Source: a virus
Direction: 5' to 3' (one strand)
Virus genome (UHGV): UHGV-1270568
DNA length: 19,450 nt
The notes under the pieces are model-generated. The model made no database searches, was not told the origin of the DNA, and was given only the letters and a program-made list of their open reading frames with translations. Position numbers and translations under genes: made by a program. How positions within the stretch are numbered: position 1 is the stretch's first letter; each line of letters starts with the position of its first letter. Below, piece by piece: positions 4,959 to 13,512 of the stretch.

Positions 4959-6710
4959 ATGATTCAGGACGCTTTTGTGCGCCAGCGTGCGCGGCAACTT
5001 TACTGGCAGGGTTATCCGCCCGCAGAAATATCACGTCTGATGGGAATAAACCCGAACACGATTTATGCGTGGAAAAAACGCGACCAGTGGGATGAAACGC
5101 CACCCGTGCAGCGTGTCACGCAGTCCATCGATGCGCGCCTCATCCAGCTTACTGAAAAACAGAATAAAACAGGCGGTGACTTTAAGGAAATAGACCTGCT
5201 GACCCGGCAGCTTAAAAAAATGCATGATGGCCAGCCGGATGCGACGGCCACAGGAAAGAAAGGTCGGGCGAAAAAACTCAAAAATCATTTCACGCCGGAA
5301 CAGATTGCCGCACTGCGGGAAAAAATCATCAGCAGGCTGGAGTGGCATCAGCGGGGCTGGTTTGACTCCCTGACCCTTTGCAGGGAAGCCGGGATACGTA
5401 ACAGGATGATCCTGAAATCCCGACAGATTGGCGCGACCTGGTATTTTGCACAGGAAGCACTGCTGATGGCGCTGCGTGACGATGTGGCGCAACCTTACCA
5501 GCGTAACCAGATTTTTTTGTCTGCGTCGCGTCGTCAGGCGTTCCAGTTTAAAAGCATTATTCAGAAGGCCGCGGCTGAAGTTGATGTGGAGCTGAAAGGG
5601 GGCGATAAAATCATCCTCTCCAACGGCGCAGAGCTGCATTTTCTCGGCACTTCTGCTGCGTCGGCGCAGTCCTATACGGGCAATTTTTATTTTGATGAAT
5701 TTTTCTGGGTCAGTCGCTTTGCTGAACTGCGCAAGGTGGCTGGCGCTATGGCAACCCTCAGCGGATTGCGGCGCACCTACTTCTCCACGCCATCCACCGA
5801 AACGCACGAAGCATACGCCTACTGGAACGGCGACCGCTGGAACGAGAAAAAGGCCACGCATAAACGCCAGCGTTTTTCTGTGGACTGGAAAACGCTGCAT
5901 AACGGGCTTATCTGCCCTGACCGGACGTGGCGGCAAATTGTCACGCTGGAAGATGTGGTTAATCACGGCTGGAAACACACCGATATCGACGAAATTCGTG
6001 ATGAAAACACCGAAGACGAGTTCCTCAATCTCTATATGTGTGAGTTTGTCCGCGAAGGGGAATCGGCATTTAACCTGAATATCCTGATTGGCTGCGGTGT
6101 TGACGGATACGACGACTGGAAAGACTGGAAACCTTTTGCTCCCCGCCCGATGGGGAATCGTCCGGTATGGATTGGGTATGACGCAAACGGCAGCAGTGGC
6201 AACGGCGACAGCGGCGCTGTATCCGTGGTGGTTCCTCCGGCTGTTCCTGGTGGCCGTTTTCGAACGGTGGAGACGCGACGCGTTCAGGGGCTGGAGTTTG
6301 AAGAACAGGCCAGAGTCATTGAAGAGTTCACGTGTCGCTACAACGTGGAACACATCGGCATTGATGTGACGGGCGGGAACGGGGAGGCTGTTTATCAGAT
6401 AGTGAAACGGTTTTTCCCTGCCGCTATTCCGTACACCTTCACGCTGTCATCAAAACGGTCGCTGGTACTGAAAATGCTGCAAATAATGCGTGCCGGGCGG
6501 TGGGAATACGATCGCGCCGAACGCGAGCTGGTCGCGGCCTTTAACGCCGTGCGTAAGGTGAAAACACCGGGCGGCTTTATCACTTACGAAACGGACCGTG
6601 CGAGGGGGATCAGCCACGGCGACCTTGCGTGGGCAACCATGCTTGCTGTCATTAACGAACCGATTGGCGGCGAAGGAGAAAACGAGCGTTTCACGGTTAT
6701 GGAGTTCTGA
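4959..6710 (+). CDS. P: Terminase large (ATPase) subunit, P2 gpP-like
   Basis: 583 aa; GGGGAG RBS; N-terminal RQLYWQGY...ISRLMGINPNTIYAWKKRDQWDE resembles the gpP N-terminus; stop overlaps the Q start (TGATG). Confidence 0.9.
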   Translation: MIQDAFVRQRARQLYWQGYPPAEISRLMGINPNTIYAWKKRDQWDETPPVQRVTQSIDARLIQLTEKQNKTGGDFKEIDLLTRQLKKMHDGQPDATATGKKGRAKKLKNHFTPEQIAALREKIISRLEWHQRGWFDSLTLCREAGIRNRMILKSRQIGATWYFAQEALLMALRDDVAQPYQRNQIFLSASRRQAFQFKSIIQKAAAEVDVELKGGDKIILSNGAELHFLGTSAASAQSYTGNFYFDEFFWVSRFAELRKVAGAMATLSGLRRTYFSTPSTETHEAYAYWNGDRWNEKKATHKRQRFSVDWKTLHNGLICPDRTWRQIVTLEDVVNHGWKHTDIDEIRDENTEDEFLNLYMCEFVREGESAFNLNILIGCGVDGYDDWKDWKPFAPRPMGNRPVWIGYDANGSSGNGDSGAVSVVVPPAVPGGRFRTVETRRVQGLEFEEQARVIEEFTCRYNVEHIGIDVTGGNGEAVYQIVKRFFPAAIPYTFTLSSKRSLVLKMLQIMRAGRWEYDRAERELVAAFNAVRKVKTPGGFITYETDRARGISHGDLAWATMLAVINEPIGGEGENERFTVMEF

Positions 6711-7756
6711 TGAGCAGAAAAAATAAAAAAGTGCGCATGAGTTCACGCATTGATCTCGCTGATGCGCTCAGGAAAGAATCATCGCTCAGTGCATTCACAT
6801 TTGATGGTCCTTATCGCCTGACCGGGCATGACCTGCTGGACAATATGTACTGTGCTGATAACGGGCGGTGGTATGAAACCCCGGTGGACTGGTACGGTCT
6901 GGCAAGAGCTGCCCGGCAAACGTCCTGGCATCAGTCTGCGCTTTACTTTAAGCGCAATGTATTACTCGGTTGCTACATCCCGCACCCGTTGCTTTCCCGG
7001 CAGGATTTCTCGGCGCTGGCGCTGGACTGGTTTGTGTTCGGTAACGCATTCCTTGAGCTTCGAAGCAATATGCTCGGCGAACCGCTTAAATTACGGCACG
7101 CCCTGGCGAAATACATGCGACGCGGAAGCGATCTTGAATCATGGTGGTATGTGCAGGATGGCAAGGACGCGTTTCAGTTTCGCCCTGGCAAAGTGTGCCA
7201 CCTGATGAATCCTGACATTAACCAGGAAATCTACGGCATGCCGGAATATCTCGGCGCATTACTCTCGGCCAGCCTGTCTCATTCGGCGGACATGTTCAGA
7301 AAACTGTATTACGACAATGGATCCCACGCCGGGTGCATCATCTACATCGGTGCAGCGCAGGTAAACCGCGAAAGCATGGACTCCCTGAAAGAAACGCTAC
7401 AGGGGGCACGTGGTGGTGGTGCGTTTAAAAACGTGCTCATTCATGCGCCTAACGGGGGCAAAGAGGGGGTGCAAATTTTGCCGTTCCAGCAGATCACCGC
7501 AAAGGATGAGTTCATGAATGTTAAGGCGGCATCCCGTGATGATGTGCTGGCTGCGCACCGCGTTCCGCCGCAACTGATGGGGGCGATGCCGGGCGAAAAA
7601 AGTGCGTTTGGTGATGTGGAGAAGGCCGCGCGGGTTTACGCAATTAACGAGCTGATGCCCGTCATGGAGGCCATGAAGCACATCAATGACTGGCTTGGCG
7701 AAGAGGTGATCCGCTTTAACCCTTACGCACTGTTAGACACCCTGCCCACATCCTGA
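6710..7756 (+). CDS. Q: Portal (capsid vertex) protein, P2 gpQ-like
   Basis: 348 aa; translationally coupled to P; same size and position as P2 gpQ, last gene before the cos region. Confidence 0.85.
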   Translation: MSRKNKKVRMSSRIDLADALRKESSLSAFTFDGPYRLTGHDLLDNMYCADNGRWYETPVDWYGLARAARQTSWHQSALYFKRNVLLGCYIPHPLLSRQDFSALALDWFVFGNAFLELRSNMLGEPLKLRHALAKYMRRGSDLESWWYVQDGKDAFQFRPGKVCHLMNPDINQEIYGMPEYLGALLSASLSHSADMFRKLYYDNGSHAGCIIYIGAAQVNRESMDSLKETLQGARGGGAFKNVLIHAPNGGKEGVQILPFQQITAKDEFMNVKAASRDDVLAAHRVPPQLMGAMPGEKSAFGDVEKAARVYAINELMPVMEAMKHINDWLGEEVIRFNPYALLDTLPTS

Positions 7757-8085: not shown

Positions 8086-8110
8086 GCGCGCAGAAAAAGC
8101 GCGTTTTTTT
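8086..8110 (+). terminator. Plus-strand Rho-independent terminator candidate
   Basis: Short GC stem (CGCGC / GCGCG, loop AGAAAAA) followed by TTTTTTT. Confidence 0.4.
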
Positions 8111-8208: not shown

Positions 8209-8233
8209 ACAAAAAGCGCCCCTGAGGCGCTTT
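8201..8233 (-). terminator. Minus-strand Rho-independent terminator closing the A / cargo operon
   Basis: 8-bp stem AAAGCGCC / GGCGCTTT with loop CCTGA at 8213..8233; on the minus strand it is followed by TTTTGTTTG. Confidence 0.55.
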
Positions 8234-8267: not shown

Positions 8268-8531
8268 TTATCCTGCTGTGCTTTCAACTGATGAGGGGAA
8301 CAAAATCTTTTCATCAAACCCTGCATTCATATCATGGACAGCAACACACCAATCCATTGACGAACGATTATCAAGAGCCTCCATGATTTCATCCATGCGG
8401 CGTAGGTCATACAGGTAAATGCTTTTATCGCCAATGGTGTAAAAACCAATTTTTTTCGGTGATGGACAGCGATCAAGAACGTCCTGTAATTCGTTCAACC
8501 ATGCCCGTTCTTTTTTTGTCAAAGTTGCCAT
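8268..8531 (-). CDS. Hypothetical 87-aa protein, third gene of the cargo cassette
   Basis: MATLTKKERAWLNELQDVLDRCPSPKKIGFYTIGDK...; AAGGAGAG RBS lies inside the 17-bp linker repeat; single-nucleotide gap to the upstream stop. No family recognised. Confidence 0.6.
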   Translation of the reverse strand: MATLTKKERAWLNELQDVLDRCPSPKKIGFYTIGDKSIYLYDLRRMDEIMEALDNRSSMDWCVAVHDMNAGFDEKILFPSSVESTAG

Positions 8532-8532
8532 A

Positions 8533-9024
8533 TCACTCTCCTTTGATGCGAATACCAGTGGTACTCATTATCCTGATTTCCCAGAGCACACGAGGAACAC
8601 CACCGTTTCCGACTGGATCGCGTTTACTCCGCAGGGCGACGCTTGATTCCGCCCAGCTTTTTCTTGGAGGAAGCGCTTTCACACGAACAAAACCAGCTGC
8701 GCGAAGAGATGCTCCTGATTCATCTGCCCGGGTGTACGTAATACAACGTTGATAACCCATAGCTTTTGCTGCCCGCCAGACAGCACCATAAAGCGCGCTG
8801 TTAGCGTTGCGTTCTCCTGTGGTACATGTGCGATTTACTTCAAGCGTTAATCCATCATCCAAATGTCGTGCAACAGGTCGACCGGCTGTCGCCACACCTA
8901 TCAATTCTCCGGCATCATTTCTCAGACCAATGCTGAATTTATGCCCCACCGGGGGTTTATTGTGTCGGTGATGTCTGGATATAAACGCCTTCGCAACACG
9001 AAGAGTAACCGGTGAAATTTGCAT
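8533..9024 (-). CDS. Hypothetical 163-aa protein, possibly GNAT-like fold; second gene of the cargo cassette
   Basis: Track ORF 8533..9063; preferred start is ATG 9024 (MQISPVTLRV...) with AAGGAGAG RBS. The segment ...NANSALYGAVWRAAKAMGY... and the C-terminal ...SGASLRAAGFVRV... loosely resemble GNAT motifs; this assignment is weak. Ends ...IRIKGE encoded by the linker repeat. Confidence 0.55.
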   Translation of the reverse strand: MQISPVTLRVAKAFISRHHRHNKPPVGHKFSIGLRNDAGELIGVATAGRPVARHLDDGLTLEVNRTCTTGERNANSALYGAVWRAAKAMGYQRCITYTRADESGASLRAAGFVRVKALPPRKSWAESSVALRSKRDPVGNGGVPRVLWEIRIMSTTGIRIKGE

Positions 9025-9026
9025 TC

Positions 9027-9602
9027 TCACTCTCCTTTGATGCCAATGTTTACAGACTGGCAAGCCTCTTTGAGCACCCAGTCAACAGCGTCTTTCCATG
9101 CTCCGGTTTCGACTGGCGGATTCTCACGCTTTACCTGTTCATAGAAACGCACCGCTCTAACCAGTCCATCTGACGGTTTTGCCTGTAGTGCAGCCTGAGC
9201 TATGCGGTATGCCTGGAGCATACGGGCGTCGTTGGCTTTTTTGCGGTTGATGTTGGCTATGTCCGGCTGTGCGTTTGTGTCGAAATACTCGCTCAGTGGC
9301 AGGGTGACAACCACATCCACCTCCTGTGGCGTGATGCCTGATTTGACCAGCGCGTGATGAATGGCAATGACATTCACATCGCTGTACTGGTATTGCGTGT
9401 CAGTCGTCTGGACAAAGCGATCGCTGACCGGATCAAAACCATAGCGCACGCCATCAAGCATGTAGTTCGCGGGCTGCGTGCCACCGAACGGCGCAGACCA
9501 TTCCGACTTGAAGCTGTTCGGGCTGATGGCGTTGCGGCGTTCGCCGTTCTCAGTCCATGCCAGCTTGGTGTTGGTGGAGCCGTCATCGATACAAATTTTC
9601 AT
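9027..9602 (-). CDS. Chimeric protein: N-terminal 120-odd aa ParM/StbA-like (actin-fold ATPase N-terminus) fused to an unrelated 68-aa C-terminus
   Basis: MKICIDDGSTNTKLAW...ISPNSFK.EW...YSDVNV.A.HHAL..SG....EVD.V.T.PL......N.QP...NI.RKKAN tracks the N-terminus of plasmid R1 ParM as I remember it (phosphate-1 motif DDGSTN), then diverges. No ParM C-terminal half in any frame. AAGGAA RBS. Ends ...NIGIKGE from the linker repeat. Confidence 0.6.
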   Translation of the reverse strand: MKICIDDGSTNTKLAWTENGERRNAISPNSFKSEWSAPFGGTQPANYMLDGVRYGFDPVSDRFVQTTDTQYQYSDVNVIAIHHALVKSGITPQEVDVVVTLPLSEYFDTNAQPDIANINRKKANDARMLQAYRIAQAALQAKPSDGLVRAVRFYEQVKRENPPVETGAWKDAVDWVLKEACQSVNIGIKGE

Positions 9603-9636
9603 GTCGCTTTTCCTTATGTTGATTAATTAATCGTTT

Positions 9637-9656
9637 ACGGGATTCTGAAATCCCGT
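9637..9656. repeat. Palindrome ACGGGAT-N6-ATCCCGT, copy 1, between the A stop and the first cargo gene
   Basis: ACGGGATTCTGAAATCCCGT followed on the plus strand by TTTTGCC. Confidence 0.6.
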
Positions 9657-9678
9657 TTTTGCCTGTTTTATGCGCGCT

Positions 9679-12501
9679 TCATATATCGCGGCGCGTTTTT
9701 TGCTCATTTACGGGATTTGTGAATCCCGTTTCTGTCTGTTTTTTGTTTCCACTGGTCAGGCCACCCCGCAGCAGGTCTGCTTTGCGGCGGGCGCGTTCAG
9801 TGGTTTCACTGATTCTCTGTGCGTGCTCTGCGTCGCGGATGGCGCGCAGCATGTCAGAAAGCACGGTAACGGGTGTTTTCATGGTGTTCTGGTCTTGCTG
9901 AAGTGTGGATGCCAGGCGTGCGGCGGCTTCGGGGTCTGATGCCCTCAGCTGTTCCAGATAGCTGGCGACCGGGTTATGGCGGATCTCCGTACTGCTTACG
10001 CCGTGGTTACGGCTCAGGCGCTGCCAGAGCTGCGTGATCCGGCTGTCCGGTCGGGTATCCGGTTTGCGTACAATTTCAAATCCCTGCGGTGCAATGATGC
10101 TGCCGTCAACGTACAGACTGCCGCCCCGTAACAGGTGCTGCATCTGCTGTTCACCGATATGCAGGCCGAGAGATTCGGCAGATTCCCGCCATTCTTTAGC
10201 GAGTAATTCGTGGTTATCAGGCAAAGGCCGCTGCTGTTTGCGGCTCTGTGTCCAGCTCTGCATTTCATCACTGCTGTTTTTTGCCTGTTTGTCACGAAGC
10301 GAACGCATCAGCGCCCGGCGTTCGTGCCGTTTCAGTGAGCGCATCCATTCGTTCACGTCAACGCCGTCAGGAAGCTGCGGCCACGGTGCTGGCCGTTCTT
10401 CCGGCTGTTCTGTCCCGTTGTTGTCCGTTTCCTGTACACGGGGACAGTTATTGCCACGAGTCCAAGGGGCGGCAGGGCCGCCCTGAAGGTCAAAACCATT
10501 TTCGCGGGCGCTGTCTTCCGTTTCCGGTTTACGTCTTACCAGTTTCCAGTTATCCGGATGCGTGCACACACGGGAGGATTCCCCGATGAGTGGTGACCAG
10601 ATCCCGTAAATCTGTACGCTCTGTTCGCCGTAATCATTCAGCTCATCTGCGAGGTCGTAGGCGGTGCGAATCAGGTAGTCTTTGCGTGGAACAAGTACGC
10701 CGCCCTGTTTTTCAATGTAGGTGGCAAAACACCCGGCATCGGCGGCAGCGAGTACCGCATCCATTGCGTCATCTTTCAGTCGTTGCGGGCCTTCCGGGTT
10801 GCGTGCCATCTGGCTGGCAAGGCGGCGCAGTTCACGCCACACCTGACGGGAGGGGATGCCAAAGAACTGGAACTGGCGGACCCGATGAAGGCGCGCCCAG
10901 CCGATGGCGCGCTCCACACTCTCGGCCATTGATTTTCCGGTTTCGTGGTCAACGCGTGGCTTGCCCGTTTTCGGGTCGATGCCATCCACGGCGCGGCTGT
11001 CCAGGTTCTTTCCGATGTAGGTCGCGATATAGCTGGTTGGTGTGCCTTTTGAGCCGTCGACATACTCCGCCTTAAAGCGCGGAGTAATATCATTGCCCAG
11101 CTCGTGGCGGTCTTCCTGAATGGCAATATCGCGGGTGATGGCCACGATGCTGTCGATTTCTTCCGGATGAGCAAAGACCATCATATGCCAGTGCACGGTG
11201 CCGTCATGGTGAGGCTCCACCGTGCGGATGCCATACCAGCGAAGACCGTCGCGGTTCAGTTTTTTGCGGACCGCCGCAAAAAACGTGTTAACCAGGTAAT
11301 CGCTGGAGTCGCGCATGGTGGCCCCGTTCCATTTGGGATTCGGATGACCGTTCTCTGTTGTGGCGTGGTATTTTGACGGGCAGGTGACAGTCAGAAACAC
11401 CGCTTTGTCGCCACGGGCTTCGGCCAGAAGTTCCAGCCCCTTCATGGTGGCCATCATTTCTGCCTTACGGTGAACCGGGTTACTTACTCCCGCGTAATAC
11501 ACTGTCTCGAGATCAATCGTGAACCCGTCTTCGTTTTCCAGCATGAAACTTTTCAGGAAATCGCGTGTTTTCTCGCGCTGTGCGCGAAACTCGCTTAACG
11601 CGTCCTGGCTCAGATAGGGTGATGTTTTTCTGGAAACCAGACAGGCGGCGCGGAGTTGTTCTTCTCTCCACTCGCAACGTAACAGCCACAGTTTGCGTTT
11701 CCACCATTCCGCACAGGTCAGGCGAAGGACTGCGCCCGGCAGCAGCTCCGTGTCCGGTTCGTTCCTCCGGTCTTTATCTGTTGTCAGTGCGTCATAATGT
11801 GGAGGCATGATGTGCAGGTGTAACGCCATGCGGGCCAGCATCTGATACGCCTTCAGCGTTACATCCATGGTCAGCTCGCCATCTCTGGCACCAAAGCCAT
11901 CACAGAGTTTTTCGAAGGTGCTGCTGAACATCGCCGCCGTCATGGTGGCCAGCGACTGTATCTGGTGTTTGTTGAGCTGCGGCAGGTAAAGCAAATCGTC
12001 CAGGCGTTCGCGTCCGGCAAGGGAGCGATAACCCGGTGTCAGCCAGTGTCCGTCAGTGCGATCCAGACGTTCGAATATTTTGCGCAGGGTTCCGCGTGCA
12101 TAGCGTTCCGCCTGCCAGCTCTTTTTGCCTTTCCGGCGATCGGCTTCCTGTTTTTTGCGCAGGAAGGAGAGGTGGCGAATAAGCGGATCGCGCAGATAGG
12201 ACGGCAGCAGGCGCAGCGAGGCCATGGCTTCATCCACCGCGCCACGTGCCTGTTTTCTGGCTTCTCTGGCCAGTGTGATGGTTTTGTCCTGTTTTTCCTG
12301 TGCGTCCAGGCTTTTATTAATCAGGTTGCCCAGCGGCGTGGCGGAGAACGCCGCATCAGCCATTTCCTGGCGGCGCTCGTTCTCTGCCCGGTAGGCATCC
12401 AGCCAGGAGGAAAGCTCGGATTCAGGAGCGGGGATTCCCGTTCCTTCACGACCCACTGCGTGGCGCGGTTGTTGCCAGTCCCTGATGTACTCTGCCGTCA
12501 T
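9679..12501 (-). CDS. A: Rolling-circle replication initiation endonuclease, P2 gpA-like
   Basis: 940 aa; HUH-type motif TVHWHMMVFA (about residue 437) and paired-tyrosine motif TSYIATYIGK (Y491/Y495), matching the P2 gpA active site arrangement as I recall it; sits downstream of the early operon. Confidence 0.85.
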   Translation of the reverse strand: MTAEYIRDWQQPRHAVGREGTGIPAPESELSSWLDAYRAENERRQEMADAAFSATPLGNLINKSLDAQEKQDKTITLAREARKQARGAVDEAMASLRLLPSYLRDPLIRHLSFLRKKQEADRRKGKKSWQAERYARGTLRKIFERLDRTDGHWLTPGYRSLAGRERLDDLLYLPQLNKHQIQSLATMTAAMFSSTFEKLCDGFGARDGELTMDVTLKAYQMLARMALHLHIMPPHYDALTTDKDRRNEPDTELLPGAVLRLTCAEWWKRKLWLLRCEWREEQLRAACLVSRKTSPYLSQDALSEFRAQREKTRDFLKSFMLENEDGFTIDLETVYYAGVSNPVHRKAEMMATMKGLELLAEARGDKAVFLTVTCPSKYHATTENGHPNPKWNGATMRDSSDYLVNTFFAAVRKKLNRDGLRWYGIRTVEPHHDGTVHWHMMVFAHPEEIDSIVAITRDIAIQEDRHELGNDITPRFKAEYVDGSKGTPTSYIATYIGKNLDSRAVDGIDPKTGKPRVDHETGKSMAESVERAIGWARLHRVRQFQFFGIPSRQVWRELRRLASQMARNPEGPQRLKDDAMDAVLAAADAGCFATYIEKQGGVLVPRKDYLIRTAYDLADELNDYGEQSVQIYGIWSPLIGESSRVCTHPDNWKLVRRKPETEDSARENGFDLQGGPAAPWTRGNNCPRVQETDNNGTEQPEERPAPWPQLPDGVDVNEWMRSLKRHERRALMRSLRDKQAKNSSDEMQSWTQSRKQQRPLPDNHELLAKEWRESAESLGLHIGEQQMQHLLRGGSLYVDGSIIAPQGFEIVRKPDTRPDSRITQLWQRLSRNHGVSSTEIRHNPVASYLEQLRASDPEAAARLASTLQQDQNTMKTPVTVLSDMLRAIRDAEHAQRISETTERARRKADLLRGGLTSGNKKQTETGFTNPVNEQKTRRDI
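9710..9729. repeat. Palindrome ACGGGAT-N6-ATCCCGT, copy 2, inside the last about 15 codons of A
   Basis: ACGGGATTTGTGAATCCCGT, followed on the plus strand by a T-rich run; a third GC hairpin plus T6 lies between the two copies (9672..9701). Confidence 0.6.
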
Positions 12502-12507
12502 AGTGAT

Positions 12508-12873
12508 TTACTTCGTCATGCCATTCAGGGTGTCGCGGCAGACTGTAGCCAGCCGCTGAATTTCCAGCACGGTGTCTTCTGTGTCGGCATGGCGATGTGT
12601 GATGCGGATGCTGTCGGCAATCACATCGACGATTGCAGAGGATGGGCGCTGGTAAATGCCAATAACGGACGGGGTGCCACCTTCAATGCGGTAAAGCCTG
12701 TAATTTTCCTCATGGCTGTCAATCATGTAGCGACCATCAATAACAATCTTTCCGTCAGCGAGCTGCGGTACAGGCAGGGATTTCAGGTACATGTCATAAC
12801 GATCACGCACGCGAGCGGCAAGATCACGTTCTGTGTTGAGCAGGTATTCAAGAAAGTCGTTGGCGAGAATCAT
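12508..12873 (-). CDS. Hypothetical 121-aa early protein immediately upstream of A
   Basis: Strong AAGAGGA RBS 8 nt before ATG 12873; stop 6 nt before the A start; no family recognised. Confidence 0.6.
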   Translation of the reverse strand: MILANDFLEYLLNTERDLAARVRDRYDMYLKSLPVPQLADGKIVIDGRYMIDSHEENYRLYRIEGGTPSVIGIYQRPSSAIVDVIADSIRITHRHADTEDTVLEIQRLATVCRDTLNGMTK

Positions 12874-12945
12874 TGCGGCAATCCTCTTGCTACAGATGTG
12901 CGAAGGCCTCCCGCCGCAAGGTGCAGGAAAGGCCTGGAACAGGAA

Positions 12946-13176
12946 TTAATGGAGTTTGTTTTGCTGCTGGATGAGCTGCTGAAGCTCGCGCAGATCATCC
13001 GCCAGATAGCTGAAAACAGAGGCGGAATAAATGTTTGATAGTGCGTGGCTGCGCTCATGCAGCATATTGATGTGCATGATTTGCGCGACGCGTGATGCGC
13101 GGAAAAGTCTGCGGTTGATTTCAGTCTGGATGTGACGACGCTCCGCGATAGCGCGGTGCTGTTTGCGGTTTGCCAT
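12946..13176 (-). CDS. Hypothetical 76-aa basic protein
   Basis: MANRKQHRAIAERRHIQTEINRRLF...; GAGAGG RBS; first gene after the 13177..13543 non-coding stretch. Confidence 0.5.
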   Translation of the reverse strand: MANRKQHRAIAERRHIQTEINRRLFRASRVAQIMHINMLHERSHALSNIYSASVFSYLADDLRELQQLIQQQNKLH

Positions 13177-13233
13177 GATGTGGCCTCTCTGTTAGTTAGT
13201 TTTGAAAACTCACCATCCAGAGGTTCCAAGCTC

Positions 13234-13314
13234 GGGGTGGTGAGACGTACAGGGTTGGAACTACCGGCTAACAGAGGACCCGGCCCAGCTGATGCTGGCC
13301 CTGTACGCCCCACC
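13234..13314. other. Highly structured non-coding element in the leader of the 76-aa / 121-aa / A unit
   Basis: Plus-strand CGTACAGGG (13246..13254) pairs with CCCTGTACG (13299..13307), extended by GGTGG/CCACC, enclosing an inner hairpin CCAGC-TGAT-GCTGG (13285..13298). Confidence 0.4.
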
Positions 13315-13353
13315 ATAATTCTGACGCGAAAAAGACGTGGCGATACGGCACGC

Positions 13354-13376
13354 ACAAAAAAACCGCTGGCGCGGTT
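13354..13376 (-). terminator. Minus-strand Rho-independent terminator
   Basis: Minus strand AACCGC-GCCA-GCGGTT followed by TTTTTTTG. Confidence 0.55.
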
Positions 13377-13512
13377 GTGCGCTCTGTTAGTCTGCGGGGT
13401 TCCAATCCCGGCACCCGTTTTATGAGGTGCAGCGGAAATGTAACCTGACTGATTGCGGCATGGCAAGCGGTTTTTTTGTGAGAACGGCATACTAAAAAAT
13501 CCTGATACTGCT

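Follow-up and report, generated by a model that had tools for sequence, protein, structure and literature searches.

Twin palindromes directly upstream of parM in a P88-like prophage: a putative ParR-binding, parC-like element

Results

Twin palindromes at the parC position

The DNA analysed here (the window) is the 19,450-nt stretch of virus genome UHGV-1270568, a P88-like (P2-family) prophage that matches P88-like phages (Xuanwuvirus, Peduoviridae) at 97-99.9% DNA identity. Two near-identical palindromes lie where its replication gene A gives way to parM, and on balance they are probably sites for the adaptor protein ParR, that is, a putative parC-like centromere and/or operator of a phage-borne type II (ParMRC) partition cassette. 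Sequence reading and a repeat finder located both as exact 20-bp palindromes, ACGGGATTCTGAAATCCCGT (proximal to parM) and ACGGGATTTGTGAATCCCGT (distal), which share the pattern ACGGGAT-N6-ATCCCGT and start 73 bp apart (Table 1). An earlier note made from the sequence alone had described this pair correctly, with one palindrome inside the last A codons and its twin in the spacer, which runs for 76 bp from the A stop (TGA, 9679-9681) to parM. With up to two mismatches allowed, chance alone would give 0.07 occurrences of the pattern in the window, and two or more matches arose in 1 of 200 shuffles of it. Each palindrome is the centre of a 42-nt direct repeat, the two repeat units being 81% identical. 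On the parM strand of the window, the proximal core ends 37 nt ahead of the parM ATG. In type II loci, parC is found directly upstream of parM, either continuous or as two blocks around a central promoter region, and is bound by ParR (PMC5016525). The twin repeats occupy just this position.

The element travels with parM and not with gene A

The association with parM is exclusive. An IMG/VR scan for GGGATT-N4-AATCCC, followed after 45-70 nt by a second GGGATT-N4-AATCCC, gave 93 contigs with twin cores, every one of which has the start of a P88-type parM 37 nt downstream. The 3' end of A was compared with that of a relative carrying different cargo (locus L003, with Dam methylase and AAA-ATPase genes). 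Its A DNA is ~95% identical, homology to the window ends inside A at ~9781, and no such palindrome is present anywhere in the 6.3 kb of that locus; the palindromes are thus not linked to A. In L050, a shorter A (773 aa) precedes an extra 159-aa open reading frame (ORF). Both palindromes fall between genes there, and the sequence becomes homologous to the window at ~9745, the outer edge of the distal 42-nt unit. The upstream ORF differs again in L061, which becomes homologous to the window ~10 bp ahead of the distal core. Judged from these sequence comparisons, the element is the leading edge of the parMR module and not a feature of A.

The recombination boundary proposed in the earlier note survives in part: the left edge of parMR does lie just outside the distal repeat in two relatives. 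A common recombination junction at the element was not found among L003, L050, L061 and L132, the last of which carries an inserted IS66 just ahead of the proximal palindrome. Because the junctions differ between relatives, we regard the position as a module edge rather than a recombination site. The IS66 insertion also explains L132, which had been a candidate for parM in a new context. In L168, a clean 73-bp deletion between the 42-nt repeats has left one hybrid palindrome.

We also considered the element as the origin (ori) of A, a P2-type nick site. No usable account of the P2 ori nick site was found in the literature, and the idea was judged on comparative grounds: L003 has no palindrome beside its nearly identical A, and in L050 both sites are outside A, beyond another ORF. 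Since the element belongs to parM, it is not the A origin.

Core sequence and spacing are conserved independently of the A reading frame

Relatives were sampled as 97 loci gathered by a parM-start anchor, not by the palindrome. The spacing between the palindromes is 73 bp in 89 of them, 72 bp in five and 74 bp in one. A Hafnia-type relative (L014/L015), whose ParR is 74% identical, differs from the window at 24% of positions of the element and nevertheless keeps 24 of 24 core bases (P ~0.003 given the overall identity), together with the 73-bp spacing. Its A gene ends in another frame, with the stop inside the distal loop. The palindromes are therefore conserved in relatives, in core and in spacing, and this conservation is independent of what A encodes. 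The conservation statistics rest mainly on this one diverged lineage and on the module boundaries described above.

Searches for relatives at other distances returned the same clade. A ParM search of genome contigs gave three near-identical loci, tblastn of ParR against plasmids gave P88-like copies only, and the Hafnia-type ParM as query recovered the clade again at 94-95% identity. No intermediate divergence was found in the collections searched, and the power to detect covariation is low for that reason.

The last ~25 codons of A run through the distal unit and the central inverted repeat, as translation of the tail shows. In relatives, the A stop shifts with the length of an A-run (A5, A6 or A7) and where the TGA is lost, and the DNA is unchanged. 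The stop is sometimes displaced as far as the TAA within a 12-bp palindrome, GATTAATTAATC, in the spacer. Because the A stop moves while the DNA stays the same, these codons are an accident of reading into the element, and their overlap with it is incidental. The C-terminal tail of A is variable and probably not functional.

The intact cassette encodes a ParR-family adaptor

In phage P88, the gene order is A, the 76-bp spacer, parM and parR. The P88 parM gene encodes 319 aa with StbA_N and ParM C-terminal domains, and parR encodes 103 aa that match PF10784, Plasmid_stab_B (StbB/ParR family), with E = 1.6e-24. A phmmer search of PDB with the single ParR sequence found spurious Fab matches only, and a profile was needed: built from 21 P88-type ParRs, it had as its top solved structure pB171 ParR (PDB 2JD3, "StbB protein"; N-terminal domain, E = 0.0065). 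The first 64 residues of ParR, including MTTPTRRISFYLKP, are nearly invariant, and divergence is confined to the linker, with overall identity going down to 41%. This near-invariant N-terminus fits the unchanged DNA cores.

The A-parM junction was matched in 1372 of 5426 complete Escherichia coli genomes, about a quarter. One locus is a 34.5-kb circular E. coli "plasmid" record (L259; NZ_CP148288.1, 1-34461) which is a complete P88-like genome with integrase, Cox, A, parM, parR and structural genes. Because the circular record is a whole phage genome, it hints that P88-like phages can be recovered as extrachromosomal circles. In another locus (L012, 5102-5410), the cargo includes a second PF10784 (ParR-like) gene adjoining a Gp49/HTH (helix-turn-helix) toxin-antitoxin-like pair on the opposite strand; no GGGATT-type palindrome was found near it.

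Sequence between and beside the repeat units

The earlier note had also listed a third GC hairpin between the palindromes. An inverted repeat is indeed present there, overlapping the A stop, and it folds no better than shuffles do (plus strand, z = -0.83; minus strand, z = -0.56). Its sequence varies among relatives, and T6 comes next on the plus strand. The repeat takes the place that the promoter core holds in R1 parC. The 12-bp palindrome GATTAATTAATC is conserved in relatives, and in those without the TGA its TAA serves as the A stop.

Transcription terminators, RNA structures and other binding proteins as alternatives

The earlier note read the two palindromes and the central repeat as plus-strand terminators or insulators, and three tandem intrinsic terminators stopping antisense entry into the early operon from the cos/cargo side are an explanation that has to be weighed. 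The T-rich run reported after each element on the plus strand was confirmed, and both palindromes were flagged by a simple terminator scan, on the plus strand only, with an 8-bp stem, a 4-nt loop and a T-rich tail. The plus-strand RNA folds at -10.4 and -10.2 kcal/mol (z ~ -3), the central repeat is followed by its T6, and the T-rich tails are part of the conserved 42-nt unit. In the stem-loop and the plus-strand T-rich tail, the palindromes resemble rho-independent terminators; they differ in having no transcription unit to end, in their mismatched stems in many relatives and in their linkage to parM. Neither the window nor P88 has a plus-strand gene annotated from the portal gene to A, and the parM remnant and the spacer contain no promoter-like site on that strand. 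The portal operon, whose end is 1.9 kb earlier, is followed by terminator-like hairpins of its own (8086-8104 and 8213-8233, 1.4-1.5 kb before the palindromes). The elements travel with parM, and the sister phage L003, which would need the same protection, is without them. The stems themselves are often broken on the plus strand: an A.C mismatch is present at the stem base in 42 of 97 loci, and in 19 of these the proximal hairpin has two A.C mismatches, leaving five contiguous pairs, two of them G-C. A common haplotype cuts the proximal T-run to TTT, giving AATCCCGCTTTCGCC, and the central hairpin, as noted, folds no better than shuffles. The plus-strand T-runs are more simply the complement of the A-rich flanks of the repeat unit, because plasmid parC regions, too, show an A/T-rich strand bias. 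We concluded that a terminator or insulator function is unlikely, although some incidental termination activity at the palindromes may still occur. With the P2 map as a guide, the hairpins after the portal gene presumably belong to the cos region or its surroundings; the one at 8213-8233 qualifies on both strands (-14.2 kcal/mol, z = -3.4).

The same palindromes could act in the sense (A-parM) mRNA, as structures for processing, for stability or for tuning parM translation after A. The sense strand folds at least as well as the plus strand (-10.7 and -11.0 kcal/mol, z = -3.9 and -4.7), the proximal variants still pair there as G.U wobbles, and we read one haplotype as carrying a double change (G-C to A-T) at the foot of the central repeat. 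However, the commonest distal variant, GGGACT (40 of 97 loci), puts a C.A mismatch inside the sense stem, and neither palindrome shows a compensatory change: among the 97 loci no compensatory double change was found in the stems, and each single transition gives a G.U pair on one strand and an A.C mismatch on the opposite one, neither strand being consistently the mismatched one. The stem sequence is kept while the loop and the outer pairs vary, which speaks for recognition of sequence rather than of structure. Rfam gave only two matches, far below threshold (MicF-like, 17.6 bits against a gathering threshold of 79). A role in the sense RNA is accordingly quite improbable. No T-run follows either hairpin on the sense strand, so read-through from A into parM would be unimpeded.

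Palindromic sites would suit any dimeric binder, and another protein (phage C, Cox, A or B, or a host factor) might be the one that recognises them; alternatively, the repeats could be functionless scars of duplication or recombination. The module edge does adjoin the distal repeat, and direct repeats can recombine, as the 73-bp deletion in L168 illustrates. Yet the same sites occur with two types of A (940 and 773 aa) and are missing beside the same A when parMR is not there, which argues against binding by A and against an origin. The differing junctions argue against site-specific recombination, and the conservation of core and spacing across the Hafnia-type divergence against a neutral scar. 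We give this group of explanations a small probability. Among the options of the earlier note, operator sites for a dimeric regulator is the one we favour, with ParR as the likely regulator instead of C, Cox or the winged-helix protein named there.

Neighbourhood of the element and the parM remnant

The features at the A-parM junction are collected in Table 1. Upstream on the plus strand, the terminase and portal genes occupy 4959-7756. The gene that follows A had been called the first cargo gene. There is a gene at this place, but it is a truncated parM, the front of the partition cassette, and not a generic cargo junction. Its ribosome-binding site, AAGGAA, lies at 9611-9616 and its ATG at 9600-9602, and tblastn together with blastn against P88 showed that the remnant is joined at ~9230 to unrelated sequence. 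A deletion of ~1.4 kb has removed the rest of parM (the C-terminal 60%), parR and a ClpX-zinc-finger gene from the window. With parR deleted, the sites left in this window have most likely been orphaned, barring a supply of ParR in trans.

Table 1. Positions of features around the A-parM junction in the window
Feature	Position	Strand	Details	Basis
12-bp perfect palindrome	9621..9632		GATTAATTAATC; between the proximal unit and the parM ribosome-binding site	sequence reading
Proximal 42-nt repeat unit	9631..9672		palindrome 9637-9656; core 9639-9654	repeat finder and pattern search
Central GC-rich inverted repeat	9672..9696		stems 9672-9678 and 9690-9696; between the repeat units; overlaps the A stop	
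Distal 42-nt repeat unit	9704..9745		palindrome 9710-9729; core GGGATT-N4-AATCCC 9712-9727; within the last codons of A	
parM remnant	9222..9602	minus	residues 1-127 of 319	Pfam StbA_N over residues 1-130 only; RefSeq pseudogene
Gene A	9679..12501	minus	rolling-circle replication endonuclease, 940 aa	Pfam Phage_GPA 3e-131; phrog_91

The remnant is read as part of a 191-aa ORF (9027-9602, minus strand), a chimera of parM residues 1-127 and the tail of a P88 gp20 homologue; the tail portion, window 9031-9234, matches the P88 locus L001 at 2325-2528. Similar parM truncations (residues 1-123 or 1-127) recur in the IMG/VR loci L035, L053 and L075. Past the deletion, the cargo includes a Mom-like/XF1762-family protein (8533-9063, minus strand; phrog_1384) and an 87-aa phrog_1714 protein (8268-8531, minus strand), each in a segment missing from P88. 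Upstream of A, an Ash-family ORF (window 12870-13490; locus L002, 7928-8191) is annotated in an identical RefSeq genome as a pseudogene without its C-terminus, which suggests further decay of this prophage.

Discussion

We infer ParR binding from the position of the twin palindromes, their association with parM and their symmetry; the stoichiometry and function outlined here are likewise proposed. In the proposed mechanism, ribbon-helix-helix dimers of ParR would bind each GGGATT-N4-AATCCC through the half-sites GGGAT and ATCCC. Between the centres of these half-sites lie 11 bp, about one helical turn, a distance that would suit two dimers on a single DNA face. Two occupied sites 73 bp apart, about seven turns, would then lie on the same helix face and could be bridged into one complex. 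This complex would capture ParM filaments and couple the DNA to them, and it may also regulate parMR expression. The operators of the ribbon-helix-helix proteins Arc and Mnt are likewise palindromic, with half-site centres about one helical turn apart and two dimers bound; they are repressor operators of phage P22, not centromeres, and no homology is claimed. The 11-bp distance from centre to centre of GGGAT and ATCCC is what the P88-type site has in common with them. The omega protein binds direct and inverted repeats equivalently (PMC5016525).

Among known partition systems, a similar layout is that of R1 parC, which is also directly upstream of parM, has two repeated blocks around a central region and a PF10784 adaptor encoded after parM, and shares the ribosome-binding context CATAAGGA. 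R1 has 2 x 5 direct 11-bp iterons with an 11-bp periodicity and a promoter in the middle, whereas the P88-type element has two palindromes in 42-nt repeats, no detectable promoter and an overlap with the 3' end of a replication gene. The pB171 system provides the best solved-structure match to the P88-type ParR profile, through the N-terminal DNA-binding domain of its ParR, a ribbon-helix-helix dimer (PMC5016525). The two proteins are weakly similar in sequence, and pB171 ParR is reported on two 10-bp direct repeats, not inverted ones (PMC9426499). The srpMRC system of SXT/R391 integrative and conjugative elements (ICEs) is, like the P88-type locus, a type II partition cassette on a normally integrated element, and srpC is the nearest precedent for mixed direct and inverted repeats (PMC4489591). 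It differs in that SrpR is without detectable ParR homology, the host element is an ICE and not a phage, and srpMRC function has been shown experimentally, while that of the P88-type cassette is putative. In the Corynebacterium glutamicum prophage CGP3, AlpACS is described as an actin-like protein with a DNA-binding adaptor and specific sites, tied to viral DNA replication or transport (PMC4446434, PMC5539076). Its actin-like and adaptor families are unrelated to the P88-type proteins, its host is Gram-positive and the phage is of another type.

Several observations weigh against ParR as the protein that binds the palindromes. According to a 2022 study, all ParRs characterised by then bind direct repeats (PMC9426499), and palindromes are not among their targets. 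We tested for iterons by A-tract autocorrelation at 10-11 and 21-22 bp: the 10-11-bp periodicity is not significant in the window region (matched by 304 of 2000 shuffles), nor in the Hafnia-type region, and it is significant in R1-like parC (5 of 2000) and IncL/M parC (10 of 2000). An 11-bp phasing of AAAC/CGTTT motifs seen by eye was dropped, as the autocorrelation is not significant. Aligned locally against the DNA upstream of parM in five plasmids, the region showed no significant similarity on either strand (z < 2.1). A simple scan found no sigma-70-like site at 9600-9800 on either strand; because there is no such detectable promoter and no sense-strand terminator, parMR is probably co-transcribed with A. 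The AlphaFold model of the ParR monomer has a pLDDT (predicted local distance difference test score) of 59.9; confidence is low in the N-terminus, which is disordered in the model. The clade is shallow, ParM being at least 94% identical within it and ~52% identical to its next relatives, and conservation could partly reflect recent common ancestry. Nothing on a P88-type cassette was found in the searchable literature. The element is filed here as one that works like parC, yet fails the classical iteron-type parC on repeat architecture. Going one step further, we tentatively propose that P88-type ParR may be the first ParR-family adaptor to act on inverted repeats, in a two-site minimal centromere for the DNA of an integrating, rolling-circle P2-like phage. 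Such a centromere, should the proposal hold, would let ParM filaments position or segregate excised or replicating phage DNA.

For annotation, there are two warnings in these results: a hairpin with a T-run beside partition genes should not automatically be taken for a terminator, and the final ~25 codons of this A are coding by accident, where the frame runs on into a DNA site. Should ParR bind here, type II partition would not be limited to direct-repeat centromeres. A very common E. coli prophage family would then carry a complete actin-type segregation machine right behind its rolling-circle initiator gene, which raises the question of what role a segregation system has for an integrating phage. 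Candidate roles are plasmid carriage, positioning of replicating DNA and stability of the excised circle.

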